Part shown: positions 8,101 through 64,000 of the stretch, piece by piece
Numbering within the stretch: position 1 is the first letter of the stretch
How the letters are laid out: each line of letters opens with the position of its first letter
Source: Lingula anatina
Taxonomy: Eukaryota; Animalia; Brachiopoda
NCBI GenBank assembly: GCA_051362555.1
Contig: CM120641.1
Location: 40,492,401 to 40,556,400, forward strand
DNA length: 64,000 bases
Direction: 5' to 3'
The notes under the pieces: model-generated
The model's database searches: none
The model's input: the letters and a program-made list of their open reading frames with translations, nothing else
What the model was told of the DNA's origin: nothing
Translations under genes and position numbers: made by a program

Positions 8101-8457
8101 GACAATCACAACAAACACATCCCAGCGAGCAGCCTGGAAGTGATCATCATGAATGCATCCACTTGGACAGCTTAGATCCCATCCATCAAGGACAACTCTA
8201 TATCCATAATACTGATAACTCCATTTTTCTAAAACACCTTGAAAGACAGTATTCCAATTTAGCATTCCAACATCAAAATGATCTGTACAAGGAAGAAATC
8301 TTCTATTAGCGTCCGTTGTTGAATAGTCTCCTTAATGTATTTTCTCTCAGTTATCTAACCATTCAAGGAAACCAACCCATTTTTCTTCTGTCTCTAATGA
8401 AACTGGAGGACCCTATGCAACTCCGGCAAATATAAATGAAAATAATTGGACTTGTCA

Positions 8458-11400
8458 TCATAATAAAGAAGCTGCCTCCAAGTTTTCTCTGACAATTGTG
8501 TCCATGACAACCTGAAACACCACCTGAATGTTGCTAGTGTCTGTTGCTGTGGTAAAATGGGGATATATCACCTTCCCCTGGTGTTTGTTCTGGATCTGGT
8601 ACATGTGCTGTATAAAGCGTGCTGCTCGGTCCACATCACAGTCAGGGCCTACAGATATTATATATATTATCAGATAGTTTTGTACTTGACAAATGCACGC
8701 CTCACATATGAATACTGTAATTAATGACTTAAGAATCTGAACACGATAGAATCAAACTTTTTATTGTTAAATTATTTTCTTCTAAAATAAAGTTAAATAT
8801 ATCAAAACATTGTGTATTCACTTCAATATTCACTGCAATAGTTTACAGATATCTAGAATTCTTTAAAACACACGGAAATCAAAATGATGTGTTTACTACA
8901 TGGGAAACCAATTTTAAAAATAGTTATATGTACAGAGTAAGGGTAATAATTCCAGACAGAAAGTCTCACCTGTATATTCTGGGAAGTAGTACCTCATGTG
9001 TCTTCCTGAGTTGAGTATTTTCTCTTGAAACAAGTCAAGTTTGTTCATGAATAAAATCTAAAAACAGAAAGAAATTATTTCATACTCACCCAACTGTTTT
9101 TTTTTTCAAAAGCAGATTATAAATTATAACCACATCCACAGATTAATTATTATTATAGGGGTGCTCTGATAAAATTAATTCTTTTTGTGAAAGCTGCATA
9201 TTGAGAAAGTGAAATGTAAATTTTTTATCTACACTCTTTGAGGTTTAAAAGAGGTATGCAAATCATATATCAATAAAACTGTTCAGATATTCAGATAACA
9301 ATGCATTCAAAGTTTTTTGACAACTTACTATAGAGGTCTCTAAGAAGAACCTGTTGTTGCATATTGAACTGAATAACTTCAAGCTTTCCCTTAACCGATT
9401 CTGAAAAACATTTTCATTTATTTTAAAATCAACAATTTCCCATTTATAATTTCTCTTCTTGTAACACCTCATTTTAAATAGGATTTCAATTAATCAGTGA
9501 CCATATGAGATGATGTTAAAACTGAAAAGTAGTGTCTGAGCAATGGTTTACTCAAAAACAGCAAAATTAACTCACCACCGAAGGATCTTCATAGAGTGTC
9601 ATATCATATCCACTTAATGATACAACAAAAAGAATGGCGCGAACATCATCAAAGCACTGTATCCATTTACGACGTTCTGACCTCTGACCACCAACATCAA
9701 ACAACCTAGCAGCCAAAGAAAGTCATGGAGTTACTATTTTAACAGAAATATTCTTTCACAGTACTGCATTAATATAACTATATCTGAATACTTGCCAATA
9801 GTAAAACAGTAATAAAAGAGATCAAACATCCAAGCCAAACTGGAGAAAAAGATGCTTATTTTTCACGATGATTCATATAAACAACTGCTAGTATACATGG
9901 CCCATACATCTTCAAATGTATTTCCTGCAAAATTTTTACCGTCCATTCTATATTGTGATCAAACATACAATACTGCTTACACAAAAAAGATAAAAATTTG
10001 TGCATAGATTTTTTACAACCATAAAAAACAAAATAAGTGTAACTGTACAGTAATTGTGCCTTTAAGCCAACAATAAAATCAGAAATAACATCGTTATTTC
10101 ACACATTAGCAAAACAATCACAGCATAATCCAACCACAAGAACAACTACAACAACTACCTGAAGATGACATCATTAATCTTGAAACAAGTCTCAATTATC
10201 CCCGTAGTGCGCACCCTGGCACGCAACACATCTTTGGATGTTGGAGAATAGTTATCTGAATTTAACCTGTCCATGTTTTCAAAAAAGCTGTGAAAAAGAA
10301 CACACAGGGATAAAGAGAATAAATCAAACCAAACAAAACGCAGACATGTGTTTTTGTTAGTAGTGCCAGGGTTATGACCTTCACACTTCAAAGCTTAGCA
10401 AGCCAGCAAAAATCAGGAAGATAACAACTCCTACACACAATTGCACAGTTAAAAAGAGAATTTCTAATATGAGGATGTTTGTTCCGGAATGTTCTCACTT
10501 TCATTTTTCCTCCACAGTACACAGAGAAAAATATTAGCATTTCTCTCAAAAAAAATTTTTTTTGAAAAATTTTAAAAATCAAGAAAGCAAACTGTAGTTG
10601 GTATATTGAGTCCCTATTATTTTCAAAATCAGTTAACATGTGACTATATTTTAGTGTAGAAGTTATTCCCTTCACAAACCACATCTAATCATGTTTAAAA
10701 GGGGTTAGGTAGTACCTGAAGATGAAATCATTAATCTTGAAGCAAGTCTCAATTATACCCGTGGTTCGCACCCTTGCCCTCAACACATCCAGGGCAGACG
10801 GAGAGAAGTTCTCTGAACTTATTCTCTCCATGTTTTCAAAATAGCTGTAAGTGAATAAGAAAGAGTTGGTATGTTATATGAATTACTAGATGGCCTTACC
10901 AAAATGGGCACAGGGTGACAATCTGATTAAAAAGAATTCAAAAGAAGATTTCACCTACTGAACCCCACATCCAAATATAGCACAAGATTTGAATTCAATT
11001 TGCCTGGTGACTAATTCATAGGGGTTGTGAATCATCATGCTGAAATACTAAATTTGAGGACAGAATTTTACTTTAATGTGTTCCTTATGTTTGAAATATG
11101 AATTCAATCACCTGGCTAATTGAAAAGTAATATTCATGCAGAGTTATCCATTATTTGTAGATGTTAAGTTTTAAATGCTAATTATTATTAGAATTACCAT
11201 GCCATTTTAAAGCGTAGCAGGAATGATTTTTCCCACACTAAAGTGGACAAACATTTTGAAATCAAACATAAAATATCATTTGATGCTGTTGACATATGCT
11301 CAAGATACACAAAATCCAAATCCAACTCAAATAATCACTTTTACTTTATCTAGGAACCTAATACTACTGTCAATGTACACATGCTGGGTAAAGGAAGATA

Positions 11401-14400
11401 ACAAACTCACGATTATTGTTTAAAAACAACAATGATATTAACACTCACTGAACATTGTCAAAATCATCTCATCATTAAGGTCTTTAATTGAGATAAATGT
11501 ACTATAATATATATCTTCTACATGTTATTAATGTTAAATTAAGGGAAAAACAATAACTTACTATATTGCAGAATCATTCAGTTCATATTCATAACCCCTT
11601 GCAACAGCTAACTGAACTCCACGATCCCGCCAAAGTCCTTTTAATGCATTTGATATGAACGGCAGCATGACATGGTTTTCATCAAAGCACCTCTGACAAG
11701 ACAGCACTGTTTGAGCATGCACCTTTAAATGAAGGGCAATCAAGAGTTTAAAAAAATAGTTCAATTTTAAATATTCTCATTGAACTGGAAAAACATATAA
11801 AATTATACAAATAAAAATTCACCAAATATTCATCTTACAAGATTCCATGAATTCCTCATTCTAATATCTTGCTGAGAGATCCCTCTGTATCCCTATCTCT
11901 CATTTTTTTCAAAAATAAAACCTTTAACATTCTTTCTTTGTAAGAGTATTTGAAAAAACATTCACAATCCCACCATCCCATGGCATGGCAGAAAATCCAA
12001 CATACCTTATTTTTAGGGTTTTCTAAATTGATCCTTAGAAGTCCCATCCCATTTAGGACATACTTCATAGAACTTAGGAGATTGTCCAAAACAGTTGTCT
12101 GTAAAGAATTTAAAGATCTAAAATATATATTCAGGTAATTGCAAATCATTTGACAGCAGGCAAAAGTATTAATATTTTTAAAATGAAATAATTTAGAAGC
12201 AACACAATGGGGACATGCTTTCAAATTGAAAATTATAACACACATAAATGAAACTATGATAAGATCTGATTTGAAATTGAAACTGCACATTCATTATCAG
12301 TTTCTTCTAAAAATAAATGTCTTATATTACCCCCCCCCTCCCCCAGGACACACACATAAATATTTGACATAATTTGTATATTGAAAACTTTTATCACAGT
12401 GGTGATCTGAGTCATAACACCTCTGTTGGTAGGAATCAAAAGCATTCTCTTATCAACATTTATCTTGTTTCACCTTCTTGTGACTGCTGACTTAATCTTC
12501 ATTCATGCAGATAACAAAGTAATAACCTTCACAAAGGGAAAGTCAGGAGGACTGAAATTTTTGTCCAAAATATTCAATGTCTTCCTTGACCCACAATCAA
12601 CTTACTCACCCAGTTTTGTTTGTAGTGCAGACAGAATACCAGAAACTTGATGAAACATTGAATCTCTACTTAGCTCTTTAATAGAAATATAACAAATTGA
12701 CAGCTTGCAGATGAATGGATGTGTCTAGTGCCCAAGATATTTTTTTCTCTCTACAATTCAGTATATAGGCTGTAAATAAAGCAGCCAAACAAAGCAGCAG
12801 TCTTTTTATATTCAGGTAAATCATTAAAATGCCAGGGTAGTTTAATATTCATCTTGTAAATATACCTTAAAACTCTGCAGTTCCTCCATTGTGAATCCAT
12901 CATTATGGATTATTTTCATCTGCTTTACTAGAGTGCTCTTTCCACTTTCCCCAGCACCTATAATAAAAAATCCAAAGTTTTGTTACTTTAATACGTACAG
13001 CAAATAATGCTCCATAATATCTTTGCAATACAGAAATAAAGGAAAATGATTTGAATTGCAGAGTGCTCTTAACTCTCCAGATTCTTTTAAAAACAAATGT
13101 GTAGTTTTAGGCTTCATTCACATGGAAAGTATATTTTCTAAAAATCTATTTTCTATTCGCGGTATATCTTGTGATCACGGTCTGATTTTTAGAAAATAGA
13201 CTTTCCATGTGAACGAAGCCTTATAAGATGAAGTTTAGAGCTGAGCTGTGATATTAATATAGTCTTCTAAGTTCCCATACCTAGAATAAAAACATGTTAC
13301 TTAAACATAAAAAAAAAACATTTTAATTCATATACAATAAAAAAAGGAAACAACATCCCCCCAAAATGCTTTGAAAGAATCCTTCAAATTTGGAACATTT
13401 TTATCACAGGTCACTTTGGTTTCATGTGCATTCTTTTGAGTACATTTGTGACAAATTCCAAGAATGGTGGCATATGTTCCAATTATGATACTGATAAAGT
13501 GTTTTGTCCACAAACCACTTTAAATGCAGTGTAAACTGTGATTGCCCTCCACACCATAGTGATTATCCTATTTTGAACTTTTTCTGGTGTATCATGACCT
13601 CATAAACCTCTGATAAAGAAAATATAAAGCCACACCTTTCAATATTAATCCAAGTGTTTTATTGTTTCAAACACGTTATGAAAATTTCAAAATAGTGAAT
13701 CACTGCAAAATTGACATTTTAATAAAAAATTACACCTGGGGAATAGAAACCATAATTATCTGTTTATTTACATGTTTAAAACATGGTAATACTTATTTAT
13801 TTCTATAGGGAAATAAATATCCAATTGAAGTCATAGGAGGAAATTTTCTGTTATCGAAATTCTATTAGTATAAATATTTTGATTCAATAAAATTTAATTA
13901 CTTTCATGTGGAATGATTTACATATTTAATTTTCAAGAATAAAAAAAAATATGAAAAAAAGTATTTGGACAGTGATATGATTTAACCCAGTAAAATTTAT
14001 AGGGGACATTAATGGAAAAGTACAAAAAAATCTGTTTTCATAAAGTATTGCACATAATAGTTGGCTCTATGCCTTTGAGGTGAACAGGTAAATACACTCT
14101 GGGTAATTAATAAGTTAGTATTCAAATATAAAATTAATAGGAATGAAAGCAATGAGTCACTTCTTGCTTCAAATTTGATAATGCTATACACTATAAATCA
14201 TTCATCAAAGTGTGGATTTCCTTTCTTGTATATATTCTAGATAAAGATTACTGAAAAAAAAAATTTATGTGAGCACATGTACAAAGCAAATGAGACTAAC
14301 AGTCACTAAGAAAGAGACTGTTACATTATGTCCAAGCACAAAAGTGAAATGGATATTTTGAAACTAAAATTATCAAACAATTCTCTCCTATAATACAACT

Positions 14401-15632
14401 TCCACTGGCAACACCTGGTCATGTAATACTAGTATTTGTATGAACATACCACACAGATGGAAGCTGCTTGTGGTGTCACATATGCTGACATATCACTTGA
14501 TATACAAGTGACATAGACACAGAGGCTACATAAGTCAGACTGTTTAATTGCTAAAGTAGATATATAGGTTAAAATTTAAGGCTTAATATCAATTAAGTTG
14601 ATCAGTTAATTGAATCTAAACCTTTTATATAATGAAAGGCTTAAAACCGTTCACTTGTCTTTCTTAAATGCCTTTCTCACAATTAAACGAGACAGTTTTA
14701 TTCAACCCTTTTTTAAGTTTTAGAGAAATATGAAACACCAGTTGTTAGGGATGAAATCTTAAATGTCAAACATCATTTAAAGACAGGTCTGTGACCTTAA
14801 ACATATGGCCAATTGCTTATATATGTGTTTCAAACCCAGTACTGAAACTTGAAAAAGGACCATACTTTTGTTTTGATAAACTTACAACATGTACTAGTAG
14901 TTTGTGAACAGAGCTTTTTTTCACAAAGATGTTATTTACAATACATTAGATTGGCTCCTCATGCTTTAAAACTTTAATTCATATTATTATAAAAATTATG
15001 TATGATATCCTTGCTGGATCTCTTACCTTTAAAAAAAAAGGAAAAAAATACATTGCATATTTAATTTCCTTTTTCATATGAAACAGATCCAATTTGTAAC
15101 AAATAAATAGGTTCTTGGTTATTCAATCTGAGAAAGGCATTGATAAAACAAAGCTGCATTCATATTATATGGCATCACATTTTTAAACATATCAACAAAA
15201 AATATACAGCACTTAAAATGGTCAATCCTAATGCCAAACTTGCCTGCTACACATATGGCATCTTATCAAAATGTTCAGCTCATCTGAGAATCACAAGAGA
15301 ATAGTTAGAATACTTTGTGCATATTTACTGTTTAATTTTTAAAAAAGGTATAATTATTTCAATTTATTCCCCAGCAAAGGTACAACTACACAATCTACTA
15401 AATAACGAAGGTATTTTATTGACATTCCAAGACAAATAATAATAGTAGGATTGTTACAAGCTCACTGTGCATTACTTCCTTGTGAAATTTTATAGTTAAT
15501 GAACTCACCTAATAACAATATTTTGATAATGTGACTCTCCTCTCTCGCCATTATCTGAAGTGCACGGTCTATTTCTTCACTTCTTGCACGAGCTTTTCGC
15601 TCTTCTTGGTCCAAACTCAAGCACGCACCCAT
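8458..15632 (-). CDS. GNAV1: Heterotrimeric G protein alpha subunit, class V (Gv), 9 coding exons, 359 aa
   Basis: Exons 15509-15632, 12866-12957, 12006-12098, 11562-11722, [10716-10844 or 10159-10287], 9576-9705, 9329-9400, 8970-9057, 8458-8648 (1080 nt). G boxes [28 protein letters not shown]. Helical-domain segments [23 protein letters not shown] and [12 protein letters not shown], plus SGRHMRYY and the [10 protein letters not shown]-terminus, resemble Gv as recalled rather than Gi/Gq/Gs/G12. Confidence 0.88.
10159..10287 (-). CDS. GNAV1: Gv alternative exon 5B (129 nt, phase 2-2)
   Basis: TCACAG|C...TTCAG|GTAGTT; encodes [42 protein letters not shown]; TACTAAC upstream at 10356-10362. 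Confidence 0.85.
10716..10844 (-). CDS. GNAV1: Gv alternative exon 5A (129 nt, phase 2-2)
   Basis: TTACAG|C...TTCAG|GTACTA; encodes [42 protein letters not shown]; no stops. Confidence 0.85.
13110..13220. mobile_element. PIF/Harbinger-like (Tourist-type) MITE, 111 bp
   Basis: 37-bp terminal inverted repeats (13110-13146 / 13184-13220, 35/37 match) beginning GGCTTC(A/G)TTCACATG, with TTA on both flanks (3-bp TSD). Confidence 0.75.
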
Positions 15633-16664
15633 TTTTAAATCCAAGTGAGAAAAAATTATCAAGTCACATACATTTTCAAAGTATGTCCGATGTCAAAACA
15701 GGGGTCTTGTCATGGGTGTTCGCATGGGTTAGGGCACATTTTGAAGTCCGTCTAATCAGCAAACAGATACCTTTGGTTGTTATCCTTGTAGTGTATCCCT
15801 ATGATGTAAGTTGTAAACTCCTTGTTTTTTATCATTTCAATACCAAATTAGTTCAAATAAAAGCATATCTAGAACAAAATTACAACACAACAATATCATA
15901 AACTTTCAAAATCATGAATAGCATATCAAATCGAGGCTAAGTGCTTTGAAGACTCCAAACATAAAAGAGCCAAACAAGCACGACAGGTGCTCGATTCACC
16001 TGTTTTTGTTTATAAATATTCTTATTATTTCGTTGCACGGGATCTTTTATAATAATACACATATCTGATTAATAATAAGTAAAGTCCATTTCTACAGACG
16101 TGGTGGAAGCTGTTAACTTTTCTAAATTAATTTTGATAATTATAGTTATTTTTAATAAAGATATTTTTCAAAGAAGACGCCAATAGGGCCGCCCAAACTA
16201 GGTTTGATGTACTTTATGCTGAAGATGACTGTTCTCTGCCCGACATTCGTCATCCATAACAAACCAGAATGATAATGCTGGTCATGGCAGGAGTTAACGC
16301 GTTCCACTTTAAAGAATTATAGAACTCGAACTGATGATTAATGCTAATTTTTGTCTCGAACTGCCACAAATGCACAGAGCGGGTTTCAGCACGGTAAACA
16401 AAGATAAAAATTCTTGATAATTATGCTGTAGCATTGCTTTTTCTTTTTCTTTTGGGGGGGGGGGGGAGAGAGAGTTGTATAACAAGTTGTTATGGTTTTA
16501 ATGAAAGAAAATTGTTTAATTATGTAACTTAGGCAAATGATACATGCATATACTGGTCCAAGGTAATTCATATTAATTTTCTTGTATTAAGAATTAAAAC
16601 TTTCAGTGTGAAAATCGCTCCAGGGGAATTTATGCTTGGTTCAACAAATGTATAATACTATATT

Positions 16665-59501: not shown

Positions 59502-62500
59502 GCACTTTTACCGATAACACGATAAGTGGAAAACCATTTTACCTTTTGACTTGAAACTTGCAGAACTGATGAATATTCATAATACGCAGGTCAAGTTCGA
59601 AAATCAGCATGATCGGGTCACTTTTAGGGAATTTATGCTGTTTTTTCACTTTTTTCAGCATATATGCAGCACCGATAACACGATAAGTGGAAAACCATTT
59701 TACCTTTTGCCTTGAAACTTACAGAACTGATGAATATTCATAATACGCAGGTCAAGTTCGAAAATCAGCATGATCGGGTCACTTTTAGGGAATTTATGCT
59801 GTTTTTTCACTTTTTTCAGCATATATGCAGCACCGATAACACGATAAGTGGAAACCCATTTTACCTTTTGACTTGAAACTTACAGAACTGATGAATATTC
59901 ATAATACGCAGGTCAAGTTCGAAAATCAGCATGATTGGGCCATTTTTAGGGAATTTATGCTGTTTTTTCACTATTTTCAATATAAATACAACACTGATAA
60001 CACAATATAAGAAAAACGGATTGGCCAATTGTAATCATACTCACAGGAGTGGTCAATCTTACTAAAACGCAGGTTGAGTTCGAAAATCAGCATAATCAGG
60101 CCATTATTTTAGAAGTTATACTGTTTTTCACATTTCCTCAGATTCAATTATTAGGCATGTTAACAGTCTCATTATTTAACTAATAAGATGCCTAAAAGTG
60201 TTTGTTTGATATTTCCTGCATCTTTACAACATTGTTAGTTGATTATGTAAAAAACATGGTAAACTTGTTATCATGTATTGTGTAATAAAGTGTCAAAAAT
60301 GGAAATAAACTCATATCATTGCAGTTTATCAGATTCAATCATCCACTATGTTCAGAATCTCAGAATGGAGGAAATTGGACATTTAACACTGTTCTATTGA
60401 TACTTTTCCCATCTCATCAATTTTCTTAGTTGGTCATATAAAATGGCAGTAAAATGTTTATTTTGTTTTATGTTAAAAAAGTGTTAAAAATGGAAATAAA
60501 CCCATTTCAGAACAGTGCTGTCTTGTTTACATTTTGGCATTTTCAAGGCGTGACTTTGAAGTTCCATGGGCCTGAAGACCTTTGCTAGTCACATTTTCTG
60601 AATATCTGTGAAACAAATATTTTATAATTAAAAATTGATGGTCATTAAGCTGTTAAACATTATGTAATATTGCATCAAAATTTGAAGAAACCCCTATTTT
60701 GGGCACTGCTTCCATGATGACCATTTAAGGAAAATCATGTCACTTACTGTTCTCAAACTTACAGGAAAGAAACATGGGACTAAAATACAGCTTCAGTAGG
60801 CAATGCAGTCTGTTTGGTATTTTTATTTATTTATTTATTTATTTTGGCAGTTAAACAGTTTTTTGTTTAAATTTAATTTTTCACATATTGGCATTTTCAA
60901 GGTGTGACTTTAAAGTTCCATGATCTTGAAGACTTTTGCTTGTCACATTTTCTGAATGTCCATGTTACTAATATTTTATTAATAACATTTGATTGTCATT
61001 ATGCTGTTAAACATTATGTAATGTTGCATCAAAATTTGAAGAAACCCCTATTTTGGGCACTGCTCCTATGATGACCATTTAAGGGAAATCATGTCACTTA
61101 CTGTTCTCAAACTTACAGGAAAGAAACATGGGACTAAAATACAGCTTCAATAGGCAACGCAGTCTGTTTGGTAAATTTTTCTGGCAATTTAACAGTTTTT
61201 TGTGAAAATTTAATTTTTCACTTATTTGCATCTTTATTTTCTGTTCTTTGTCTGTACATTTGACAGCTTTGCTGCCTTGTTTTGCATTTTGCCTTTATAC
61301 AGACAGATGCATATCTTGTGAGTTTTGTAATTGTAGTAAGTCTTGGAGTAAAATTGAGTGGTGCGGATGAAGATGACACAGGGGATGAAGATGAAGAAGA
61401 AGATGAGGATGAAAGCTTGATCACTACTATCCCTAGTGCTAATCGGTTTGATGCACTAAATAATCTTGGCTCTGTCAGCAGTGCCTCTACCAGAGAGGTA
61501 TAAATATTTTAATATATAGCAGAGACATTGTAATTATGAAATGTTTAAAAATTGTTGATGGGATTTTTGATTATGAACTCTTTTCAAAGTTCTGTATTGT
61601 CATTCTACACACTGGTAGTCAGTCTTCTCTCTTTATGTACCATGCAGTAGTTTATCATATAATACTCATCAAGATGGCCTACATTCACTGTACTACAAAA
61701 ACATTTTGGTGCATGTAATTATTATGTCATTAATTTAGGATTGGAAGTGCATTTAACTTTTTGATGTATTACTGGAGTGTTCAGAATTTTTTAAATGACA
61801 TTTTACCAAAAATTACACTGTTAAGGTGCATAGCTGTTTATATACAATGGTTGAAAATAAACTGTTTTATAAATCCTGTTTACAGACTGAGGCAAGCAAA
61901 AAACAACCAGAGGTCCAAACCAAAAGTCCAAGTAGAAATCGAGATCTCTCTGACTTTGATCTGTCAGGTAATTATATCTTTTTTCAGTGTCAATTGTTTA
62001 TCAAATGATGAATTGAAGATATACATATAGGTGTTAACTTCTAATATCAAGTCAAAACAAATTTAGTGACCATGAAATGATTTGAAATTTACACTTGTAA
62101 TTCATACTTTCAGTAGGGATGGGGCAGCAACAGCTTATGTATGCTATGGATGCAAGTGCTAACAGTCCCCGCTCACAGCAAGGACAGGACAGACAAGGCA
62201 ACCCTTGGCAGCAGGTGGTCCCACAATCCCCACGTAGGTCCCAACAGTACCAGCAGCCCAGTTATAATACAAATAATGTACAGTCCCAAGAAGCTGGTGT
62301 GGTGCCCTCTAGAGGCCTGTTACCTACTCCTCTTCCGCCTTTCCCACCACCATATGACTCATGGTATGACTACAGATTTGCTTGCCGAAACTGCTTCCAG
62401 CAGATAGGGGAGGGGGTTAATGGCTACAGATTGTCCACAGTACAGAATCACCTGTGTGAGGAGAACTTTCTGTTGATGAAGCTGAAACAAGGCAATGGAC

Positions 62501-64000
62501 CTTGGTTGAAGATACGTCCAAGGCCAGTTAATGTCCATTTTGTTGGCACTTACAAGCTTTGTAGGCACTTCTTGCAACAGAAGCCGTGTAATGTGGGTAC
62601 GTATTGGCTAGTATTTCTGCACTGTATGTTTCATTTGTAGTTTTATTGGTTATGTTCAATTAGACTCTTCCTGTGATTGATTTATTTACTGGTTATAAAG
62701 AGTTGCGTTAACTGTTATGGTACATTATATATGTACGTAGAAGGGTTGATCCTATTTTTAAATACATAAACTGTAAACCGTGTTTTGATTTTACTCTAAA
62801 TTTACTGAGTGGCTTTGTTTGCTAAAGAAGCAGGTTGCTTTCAAAAAACGGCATTTACATTTTACATCATGGTTAACATTTACAGTAATTATTCTGGTTT
62901 TTTTGCACAATTTTGGTGATGTTGGCCCCATAACTTCCAAATCATTTTATTTTCAACTTAAAATTTACTGAGTGGCTTTGTTTAGTAAAGCAGCAGGTTG
63001 CTTTCAAAAATCAGCATTATCAGTTAACATTTATGGTAATAATTCTGTTTTTTTATGTGTGAAATCTTGATTTTTCACTCATTAGCATTTTCAGTGGCTT
63101 TTATATCACATGGAATTGAATCACTTCCTAGTTTTTCAATGTCCATGTCACCTGTAGTACATAATGTAAGAGGGTAAGAGTGATTATGTTATTTTAAAGC
63201 ATTATGTTACAGTGCATCAAAAATGGCCAAAACATTATTTTGTGCACTTTTTTCTGTATAACGTCTGAACATTTGACAGCTTTGCTGCCTTGTTTCCTGT
63301 ATGGTGTCTGTATATTTATTAGCTTTGCTGTCTCGTTATAGGATGTTCGTTTTAAGATCTGAAGTTTGAAAGCTGAATAATGTTACTTATTTCAAATCTA
63401 GGGGAAGCACGTTGCACATTTGCACATAATGATGAAGAAATGGAATTATGGGCTATTGACAGAGAAGGAGGATTCAGTATAGCAGACTTTATCAGCAAAC
63501 ACACAACCAATATTTGTGAGTACTGAGATAATTATCTTTTTAAATTTTACAGCTCTGTTCTCAGTTTACACATCAGTATGCTTTTAAATCCCATCTTTTG
63601 TTTTTCATTTTTACCAGGATTTCCTTTTAATTTCTAGGTTGTTAAATAATCCTTAAATTTCCCATGGTTAGCACCTACATATTGTAATGCTTCTGTCTCA
63701 AAGTTTCTTTTGTGTTTCATTTTTATATTCAGTGAGGGAAAGGTCCTTACAAGCTGCCATGGAAGCCAAGAGACAACAACAGGTGTACCCGTCATCACAC
63801 CAACAGGGGTATTCCTCATCACACCAACAGGGGTACCCAGCATTACACCAACAGGGGTACCCAGCATCACACCAACAGAGGTACCCAGCATCACACCAGC
63901 AGGGGTACCAGGCATCATATGTGCATGGTGGCACGAGGCAAAGCATGGGCAGAGGTCGCGTGATGCTGACCCCTGGTGGACAATATCCTGGTCATGGCAT
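56711..64000 (+). CDS. ZC3H7: TPR + CCCH zinc-finger protein, ZC3H7A/B-like (5' part; continues beyond the window)
   Basis: Frame-consistent exons starting at 56711, 57261, 57459, 58026, 58328, 58695, 59210, 61337, 61886, 62114, 63402, 63733. TPRs (LKEEGNMKFK, LFSNRAFCSIKMGRYFEALEDA, KAYYRKAVAL) are followed by the ZC3H7-type FACRNCF...WLKIRPRP..FVGTYKLC...C...CTFAHNDEEMELW. A helicase-fused relative cannot be excluded without the downstream sequence. Confidence 0.75.
57721..57812. repeat. (GT)n microsatellite
   Basis: About 46 perfect GT units. Confidence 0.95.
59510..60135 (+). repeat. 161-bp tandem repeat, ~4 copies, inside the HINE
   Basis: Units start at 59510, 59671, 59832 and 59993 (ACCGATAACACGATAAGTGG...); the first three are near-identical and the fourth is diverged. 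Confidence 0.93.
60531..61220 (+). repeat. ~354-bp tandem duplication inside the HINE
   Basis: GGCATTTTCAAGGYGTGACTTT...AAACATGGGACTAAAATACAGCTTCA recurs at 60536 and 60890. Confidence 0.88.
62790..63338 (+). mobile_element. Older degenerate copy of the same HINE family
   Basis: ~163-bp-period repeat (62798, 62961) sharing GCAGGT....TTC.AAAATCAGCAT with the 161-bp unit. Two 3'-end modules: GTCTGAACATTTGACAGCTTTGCTGCCTTGTT (~63263-63294) and TGTCTGTATATTTATTAGCTTTGCTGTCTCGTT (~63306-63338). Confidence 0.6.
63775..63918 (+). repeat. Coding 24-bp minisatellite encoding (QQGYPASH)-like x6
   Basis: CAACAGGGGTACCCAGCATCACAC-like units, in frame in the last visible ZC3H7-like exon. Confidence 0.88.

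Follow-up and report, generated by a model that had tools for sequence, protein, structure and literature searches.

Does the Gαv gene of the brachiopod Lingula anatina give rise to two proteins by an either-or choice between two neighbouring copies of a single exon, and if so, what directs that choice? The gene lies on the minus strand of a window of 64 kb (the whole stretch of DNA that was analysed), running from 15632 to 8458 with nine coding exons per isoform, the fifth of which is present in two copies, 5A and 5B (Table 1). Both tandem exons are spliced to exons 4 and 6, and the gene is likely to produce two 359-aa isoforms by exclusive choice between them, with a pair of intron–exon stems as predicted helpers. 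Exons were placed from the sequence and the joints found in RNA agreed with this placement. In the case of exon 3, a second AG at 12117, 19 nt upstream, would shift the frame; the listed RNA joints fall only at 12098.

Table 1. Features of the Gαv gene of L. anatina, in order of transcription (positions are those of the window)
Feature	Positions	Strand	Remarks
Gαv exon 1	15509..15632	-	124 nt coding from the ATG at 15632; joined to exon 2 in RNA
Gαv exon 2	12866..12957	-	92 nt; RNA joints
Gαv exon 3	12006..12098	-	93 nt; RNA joints
Gαv exon 4	11562..11722	-	161 nt, phase 2 at end; RNA joints
Intronic element a	10906..10917	-	Complements exon 5A nt 66-76, 6+5 bp with 1-nt bulge
Gαv exon 5A	10716..10844	-	129 nt; alphaE-alphaF, switch I, beta2, start of beta3; joints 4-5A and 5A-6
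Exonic arm in 5A	10769..10779	-	Partner of element a; codons of the R-A-R-V stretch
Intronic element b	10363..10372	-	Perfect 10-nt complement of exon 5B nt 66-75
TACTAAC, candidate branch point (role inferred)	10356..10362	-	Immediately 3' of element b; ~70 nt to 5B acceptor
Gαv exon 5B	10159..10287	-	129 nt; copy in RefSeq XP_013417530.1; joints 4-5B and 5B-6
Exonic arm in 5B	10213..10222	-	Partner of element b
Gαv exon 6	9576..9705	-	130 nt; DVGGQ, switch II; RNA joints
Gαv exon 7	9329..9400	-	72 nt; RNA joints
Gαv exon 8	8970..9057	-	88 nt; RNA joints
Gαv exon 9	8458..8648	-	191 nt coding, up to stop; RNA joints

Exon 5A lies upstream of 5B, with a 428-nt intron between them. As is characteristic of tandem-duplicated exons, the two copies are equal in length, phase 2-2, bounded by AG/GT and preserve the reading frame; a preliminary description of this DNA had reported the same arrangement, and its coordinates and splice sites are borne out. 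Its claim that either exon yields a 359-aa G-alpha also holds, with no internal stop codon in either translation. Inclusion of 5A and 5B together gives an in-frame product of 402 aa and joining exon 4 straight to exon 6 creates a stop codon at the joint. At the nucleotide level the copies are identical at 106 of 129 positions (82%), a similarity far above chance (blastn self-match E 8e-34), and blastn self-comparison identified no third copy of exon 5 within the window. The 42 whole codons contain 10 amino-acid changes and eight synonymous ones. In keeping with what had been described for the end of the helical domain, nine of the ten fall within codons 1-18, the tenth being an F/V change at codon 40; the 21 residues of the switch-I stretch are indeed the same in both copies despite six synonymous codon differences. 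The flanking introns, which had been called unrelated, show no overall alignment (the local alignment score of the two upstream introns is 27, against 23.4 +/- 2.9 after shuffling), but each of these introns carries a short element, similar in the two, that is complementary to the exon it precedes, and to this extent the earlier statement has to be amended.

Assignment of the gene to the Gv class comes from phylogeny, as had been suggested, and from exon layout. In a quick maximum likelihood tree of 41 rows, with SH-aLRT values and without bootstrap, both isoforms group with eight named fish Gv proteins in a clade of 28 rows (SH-aLRT 100, stem 0.88); outside it lie the Gi, Go, Gq, G12 and Gs rows, whose labels we take from C-terminal motifs, with names confirmed for Gi, G11 and Golf and not for Go and G12. 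Named fish gnav1 proteins are 66-70% identical to this Gα (about 515-560 bits), compared with 354 bits for the best solved Go/Gi chains. The nine-exon layout fits Gv: set against what we take to be the GNAI exon sizes (129 nt for GNAI exon 5 included), two exons of 72 + 88 nt replace one, and exon 2 measures 92 nt. Gv genes are described, in the part of PMC5896119 considered here, as having nine coding exons, with GNAI exon 7 split in two and intron 2 shifted. Isoform B is 100% identical to RefSeq XP_013417530.1 from L. anatina, which is named 'G(o) alpha' and whose 90% cluster has two members only. Numerous invertebrate proteins that bear the name 'G(o) subunit alpha(-like)' group with the named fish Gv proteins (18 in the tree) and, judged by this grouping, Gv is widely misnamed, the RefSeq model of the present gene included. 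A search of the protein collection with exon 5A found no protein identical to isoform A among 44 candidates, weak negative evidence on which isoform A appears to be unannotated.

To follow the use of the two copies, eight of the nine listed same-species RNA runs were used (X1, X2 and X4-X9), with 6-30% of each being read; a joint was listed if supported by at least three reads from two starts within one run. Over the eight runs, total joint reads amounted to 29 for 4-5A, 8 for 4-5B, 7 for 5A-6 and 9 for 5B-6, both copies being joined to both constitutive neighbours, exons 4 and 6. The 4-5A reads came from X1 (9), X2 (8), X8 (5), X7 (4), X6 (2) and X9 (1), with none in X4 or X5. Those for 4-5B numbered 2 in X2, 0 in X5 and 3 each in X6 and X9, and were under the listing limit in X1, X4, X7 and X8. 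The 5A-6 joint (0 reads in X1 and X4, 3 in X7, 4 in X8) and the 5B-6 joint (0 in X1, 1 in X4, 2 in X7, 6 in X8) were both under that limit in X2, X5, X6 and X9. This count, which the preliminary description had proposed as a check, reveals all four either-or joints; the 5A-5B and 4-6 joints have no listed row in the eight runs, at a depth of 1-10x where up to two reads per run could stay unlisted. Mutually exclusive use, as claimed earlier, is thus borne out insofar as both copies are used via all four joints, with strict exclusivity likely rather than proven at this read depth.

Individual runs add detail. With 5B covered to a depth of ~4, X6 and X9 each have three reads that run from exon 4 straight into 5B, indicating that most 5B in these samples is not preceded by 5A. 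The two 4-5B reads of X2 extend only 18 nt into 5B and cover one diagnostic base, and X5 yielded only two reads, both intronic. In X8 the 5B acceptor is often unspliced, with eight intronic reads across it at 10291, and the X8 5B-6 reads may for this reason derive from unfinished transcripts. Intronic reads are seen near 5A/5B in X6-X9, most of intron 1 is bare in X1, X4, X7 and X8, and splicing around 5A/5B looks slow. Usage also differs between samples, being nearly all 5A in X1 and X2 and mixed in X6 and X9: 5A:5B reads are 17:2 in the former pair and 3:6 in the latter (p 0.005), and counting distinct starts gives 11:2 versus 3:4 (p 0.12, or p 0.011 without X2's two reads), which hints at regulated exon choice between samples. 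Relative to window positions 8300-15800, X7-X9 carry many differences in introns and UTRs and, in exon 3, three synonymous ones, which suggests that they come from a diverged population filed under one species name; 5A and 5B are both in use within these three runs. Intron 1 contains an imperfect palindrome of ~113 nt (13109-13221) with a heavy RNA pile-up whose loose ends come from elsewhere, and which looks like a small inverted-repeat mobile element.

What has selection made of the two copies? Between 5A and 5B, dN/dS is 0.24 with a dS of 0.56 (Nei-Gojobori, Fisher p 0.004), so that the pair is under purifying selection, as had been inferred earlier. For codons 19-42 the ratio is 0.075, and for codons 1-18 it is 0.42 (p 0.26, no significant departure from neutral). 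The dS values (0.49 versus 0.67) lend no support to a recent gene conversion of the switch half. The nearest other protein is an unnamed Logan record (P0002). Outside exon 5 it shows 24 differences over 317 sites; within exon 5 it departs from 5A at 8 of 42 sites and from 5B at 10 of 42. In a set of 590 Gv pairs matched for their distance outside exon 5, the median number of exon-5 differences is 5, with at least 8 in 9.8% and at least 10 in just 1.5% of pairs, and on this basis the evolution of 5B may have sped up. Residues N169 and S171 are common to 5A and 5B, rare elsewhere (3% and 0%, respectively) and absent from P0002, a pattern suggesting that the duplication, or a conversion, postdates the split from P0002.

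No convincing exon-5 swap pair was found among 237 stored Gv proteins covering exon 5; the four pairs that are near-identical outside exon 5 and different within it are all between different cyprinid species. Likewise, no gene with two exon-5 copies was seen in the best 80 of 106 metagenome loci, and each of 14 animal Gv-like metagenome loci with both flanking exons has a single exon 5. The duplication thus appears, so far, to be lineage-restricted, and would be old enough for intron similarity to have been erased. One metagenome contig (L030:1055-3489) carries two adjacent intronless Gα-like genes on opposite strands.

The intron–exon elements are new here, being absent from the preliminary description, and were first seen post hoc, in a duplex scan of 10 region pairs. 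Each exon copy has its own intronic element upstream of its own acceptor and both elements target the same exon stretch, nt 66-76. Within the exonic arm the two copies differ at nt 67 and nt 70, both differences being synonymous and both being matched in the elements (G-C/U-A and A-U/C-G). The duplex energies at the exons' own acceptors, -20.1 kcal/mol for 5A and -21.9 kcal/mol for 5B, are the two lowest of 19 acceptors, ten of which come from the neighbouring gene with approximate placement. Equal or better duplexes were obtained in 3/600 shuffles for 5A and 2/600 for 5B, and in 3/409 window segments for each. Own-exon pairings (a-5A -20.9, b-5B -21.9 kcal/mol) are stronger than cross-pairings (a-5B -16.2, b-5A -11.8 kcal/mol) and can coexist, with ensemble results that vary: across eight windows the expected pairing ranges, depending on the window, from 0 to ~10 bp. 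The stems are present in the local folds, in the minimum-energy structures as well as in the centroid ones, with z-scores of only -2.2 and -1.1. No comparable stem was present among 12 single-copy Gv exon-5 loci, five of them close relatives, a set from which five near-duplicates and one truncated locus were left out. Compensation is seen between the paralogous copies only, no second two-copy species having been found. We put the chance that the stems have a functional role at about even. The constitutive exon-9 acceptor (8648) also has a strong duplex between upstream intron and exon (-18.3 kcal/mol, 0/60 shuffles). The neighbouring gene whose acceptors served as duplex controls is a multi-exon gene directly upstream on the minus strand (~24380-17830), which we take from its translated motifs to be GTPBP1-like (GTP-binding protein 1).

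How might one copy be chosen and the other passed over? Three simple devices do not fit this locus. Steric exclusion by a branch point close to the 5A donor is at odds with an intron of 428 nt, an AG-free zone of 89 nt and a candidate branch point ~355 nt from that donor; minor-spliceosome incompatibility is at odds with introns that are all GT-AG and lack a U12 donor as we take it to be; and decay could not guard against co-inclusion of 5A and 5B, the product being in frame. Exclusivity appearing to be neither steric, nor due to the minor spliceosome, nor, as regards double inclusion, policed by decay, active control would be needed. In the scheme that we propose, the 3' splice site of each copy would lie inside the stem of that copy, and the 5B stem would abut the candidate branch point, TACTAAC, which lies within the 89-nt AG-free zone, the longest of nine introns. 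Ending at this point, the 5B stem would hinder U2 snRNP binding. The stems would damp both acceptors such that one copy is committed per transcript, and weak donors (GTACTA for 5A, GTAGTT for 5B) would add to the control; at positions +3 to +6 these match the donor consensus at one and two positions, respectively, compared with two to four for the other seven donors. Transcripts that skip both copies would be removed by nonsense-mediated decay because of the stop at the 4-6 joint, and double inclusion, being in frame, would require an active block. For intron–intron docking, the best duplexes beat 15/15 crude shuffles for two pairs; these duplexes are long and gapped.

The stems are where an alternative account comes closest to ours. 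The complementarity may be due to chance or be a non-functional relic, the choice being decided instead by the weakness of the splice sites and by RNA-binding proteins, such as one of the STAR/Quaking type acting at ACTAAC, and we judge this account to fall only a little short of an even chance. It is favoured by the post-hoc discovery of the elements, by folding that depends on the window and by the similar duplex at exon 9, as well as by ACTAAC at 10361 and CTAAC at 10708, which we take to be motifs of that type. It has to reckon, however, with one exon stretch being matched twice over, each time at low probability, with compensation of both intra-arm differences and with the absence of stems from the 12 single-copy loci. 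A somewhat lower, though still substantial, chance attaches to the idea that either-or splicing is real and that the isoforms are interchangeable, each copy remaining intact only because it enters some transcripts and the differences being tolerated drift. All ten differences fall at sites that vary among orthologues and none at an invariant site, dN/dS is below 1 even in codons 1-18, and a second copy is missing from the 14 other animal loci; on the other hand, nine of the ten differences are clustered in codons 1-18 where orthologue pairs would predict 51% (binomial p 0.013, from pairs that are not independent), and usage differs between samples in reads if less clearly in distinct starts.

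Frequent co-inclusion of both exons, or leaky use of one copy that is a decaying duplicate, we regard as very improbable. Double inclusion would remain in frame, the listing limits could hide rare joints, and a double-inclusion form with 43 additional residues is described for Anopheles Gq in the part of PMC4553527 considered here. Against this stand the four exclusive joints seen and the lack of any listed 5A-5B joint, the zero depth on the 5B bin in X1 and on the main 5A bin in X4 and the six synonymous and no amino-acid changes over the 21-codon core. That the assembly has placed two alleles or a stray paralogue in tandem is barely credible: single samples contain RNA reads from both exons and from the intron between 5A and 5B, and the copies differ by 18% with ten amino-acid changes, whereas eight of nine checked read variants in other exons are synonymous. 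Exclusive choice between two expressed exons, with stems as predicted helpers, remains our preferred reading. A bolder version, in which Gv is a third Gα class with recurrent duplication of the switch-I exon, co-duplicated hairpins that co-evolved with the synonymous codons of switch I shut their own acceptors, and a swap of a cleft tyrosine and an ICL2-pocket residue yields tissue-specific Gv isoforms that differ in activation, seems to us unlikely.

With regard to the proteins themselves, residue n here corresponds to Gαi n-3 in an alignment to Gαi3/Go. In a structural model (mean pLDDT 80), alphaE, the loop that joins it to alphaF and the beginning of alphaF hold the nine clustered differences, and beta3 opens with residue 197. 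Residue 158, tyrosine in isoform A and phenylalanine in isoform B, is the equivalent of Gαi Y155, which sits in the interdomain cleft; it belongs to a pair of tyrosines there that, when phosphorylated, increase exchange, according to the part considered of bioRxiv 2020.08.09.229716. Residue 197 (F in A, V in B) is the equivalent of Gαi L194 and Gαs V217, which are placed in the receptor ICL2 pocket in the part considered of PMC7308389. Across 204 other Gv proteins every one of the ten changed positions is variable; at position 158, F occurs in 90, Y in 60 and L in 52. The different helical-domain surfaces for regulators or effectors that the preliminary description had inferred would, on this evidence, be a possibility at most. 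The two isoforms would share catalytic switch I and differ in modest tuning, most plausibly via residues 158 and 197, which as candidate functional switches are leads only, both varying among Gv orthologues. The literature covered contained no known Gv receptor, and likewise no support for Gv tyrosine phosphorylation.

Duplication of this exon has precedents in other Gα classes. Exons 4.1/4.2 of GNAQ/GNA11 in coelacanth, gar and teleosts and exon 5 of tunicate preGNAI are tandem duplicates used in a mutually exclusive manner (Lokits et al. 2018, PMC5896119), for which independent origins in Gq and Gi were inferred and the region credited with an 'especially high susceptibility'. As in Lingula Gv, it is an internal exon, homologous by rank and position, that is duplicated and used either-or; the differences are the class, the phylum and the lack of any RNA stem in the part of PMC5896119 considered, which sampled only two protostomes and makes no mention there of Gv exon duplication. 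In insect Gαq (Lygus B/B', Anopheles D/D*) the variants diverge after Leu155 and one Lygus variant is head-specific (PMC4553527, in part). Here too, double inclusion adds 43 aa, with homology to the Lingula exon 5 judged from position and length, unaligned; insect Gq, however, has three alternative exon pairs that are shared across insect orders and Lingula Gv one pair in one lineage. The vertebrate GNAO exons 7.1-8.1/7.2-8.2 are also mutually exclusive duplicated Gα exons, but these are terminal exons encoding the C-terminal receptor-contact region and not the switch-I exon (PMC5896119, same part). Zebrafish gnav1 (NP_001159486.1), of the same class and clade as the Lingula gene and 69% identical to it, is a single gene, and 'splic' is absent from the main text of PMC11087313.

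For the stems, the closest parallels are docker-selector and bidirectional pairing systems, in which short elements lie near duplicated exons; an origin by stem-arm duplication has been proposed, and srp exons each have their own pair (PMC6071210, in part). The Lingula stems resemble these in being short complementary elements beside duplicated exons. In docker-selector systems a single common element pairs by turns with a partner at each exon and the arms are described as intronic, whereas in Lingula the exon was apparently duplicated together with both arms, one of them is coding and each putative stem would enclose its own acceptor. Within the finding as a whole, these paired stems are the most original point and also the least certain.

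The preliminary description knew of no comparable report for Gv. We found none for Gv exon duplication or Lingula Gα splicing either, in a search that covered neither supplements (those of PMC5896119 may bear on the point) nor the 2009 paper defining Gv, but the homologous exon was already known to be duplicated in GNAQ/GNA11 and preGNAI (PMC5896119) and, judged by position and its 43-aa length, in insect Gq (PMC4553527), both sources considered in part. The Lingula Gv exon pair is, then, real, expressed and apparently unreported for Gv, its kind and the exon itself being already known. A Gα class with receptors and effectors described as unknown gains an expressed, apparently unannotated isoform, and Gv joins the Gα genes in which this one exon has repeatedly been duplicated and retained. 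The isoform pair amounts to a natural swap in which switch I is constant and the end of the helical domain and the first beta3 residue vary. If the stems are functional, exon choice would be controlled by hairpins of which one arm is coding, and compensatory changes between the paralogous copies would have preserved them. The reach of these results is limited to one lineage so far. Elsewhere in the window, tandem repeats occupy 59510-61295 and 62784-63915, and include units of ~161 nt with 83-89% identity.
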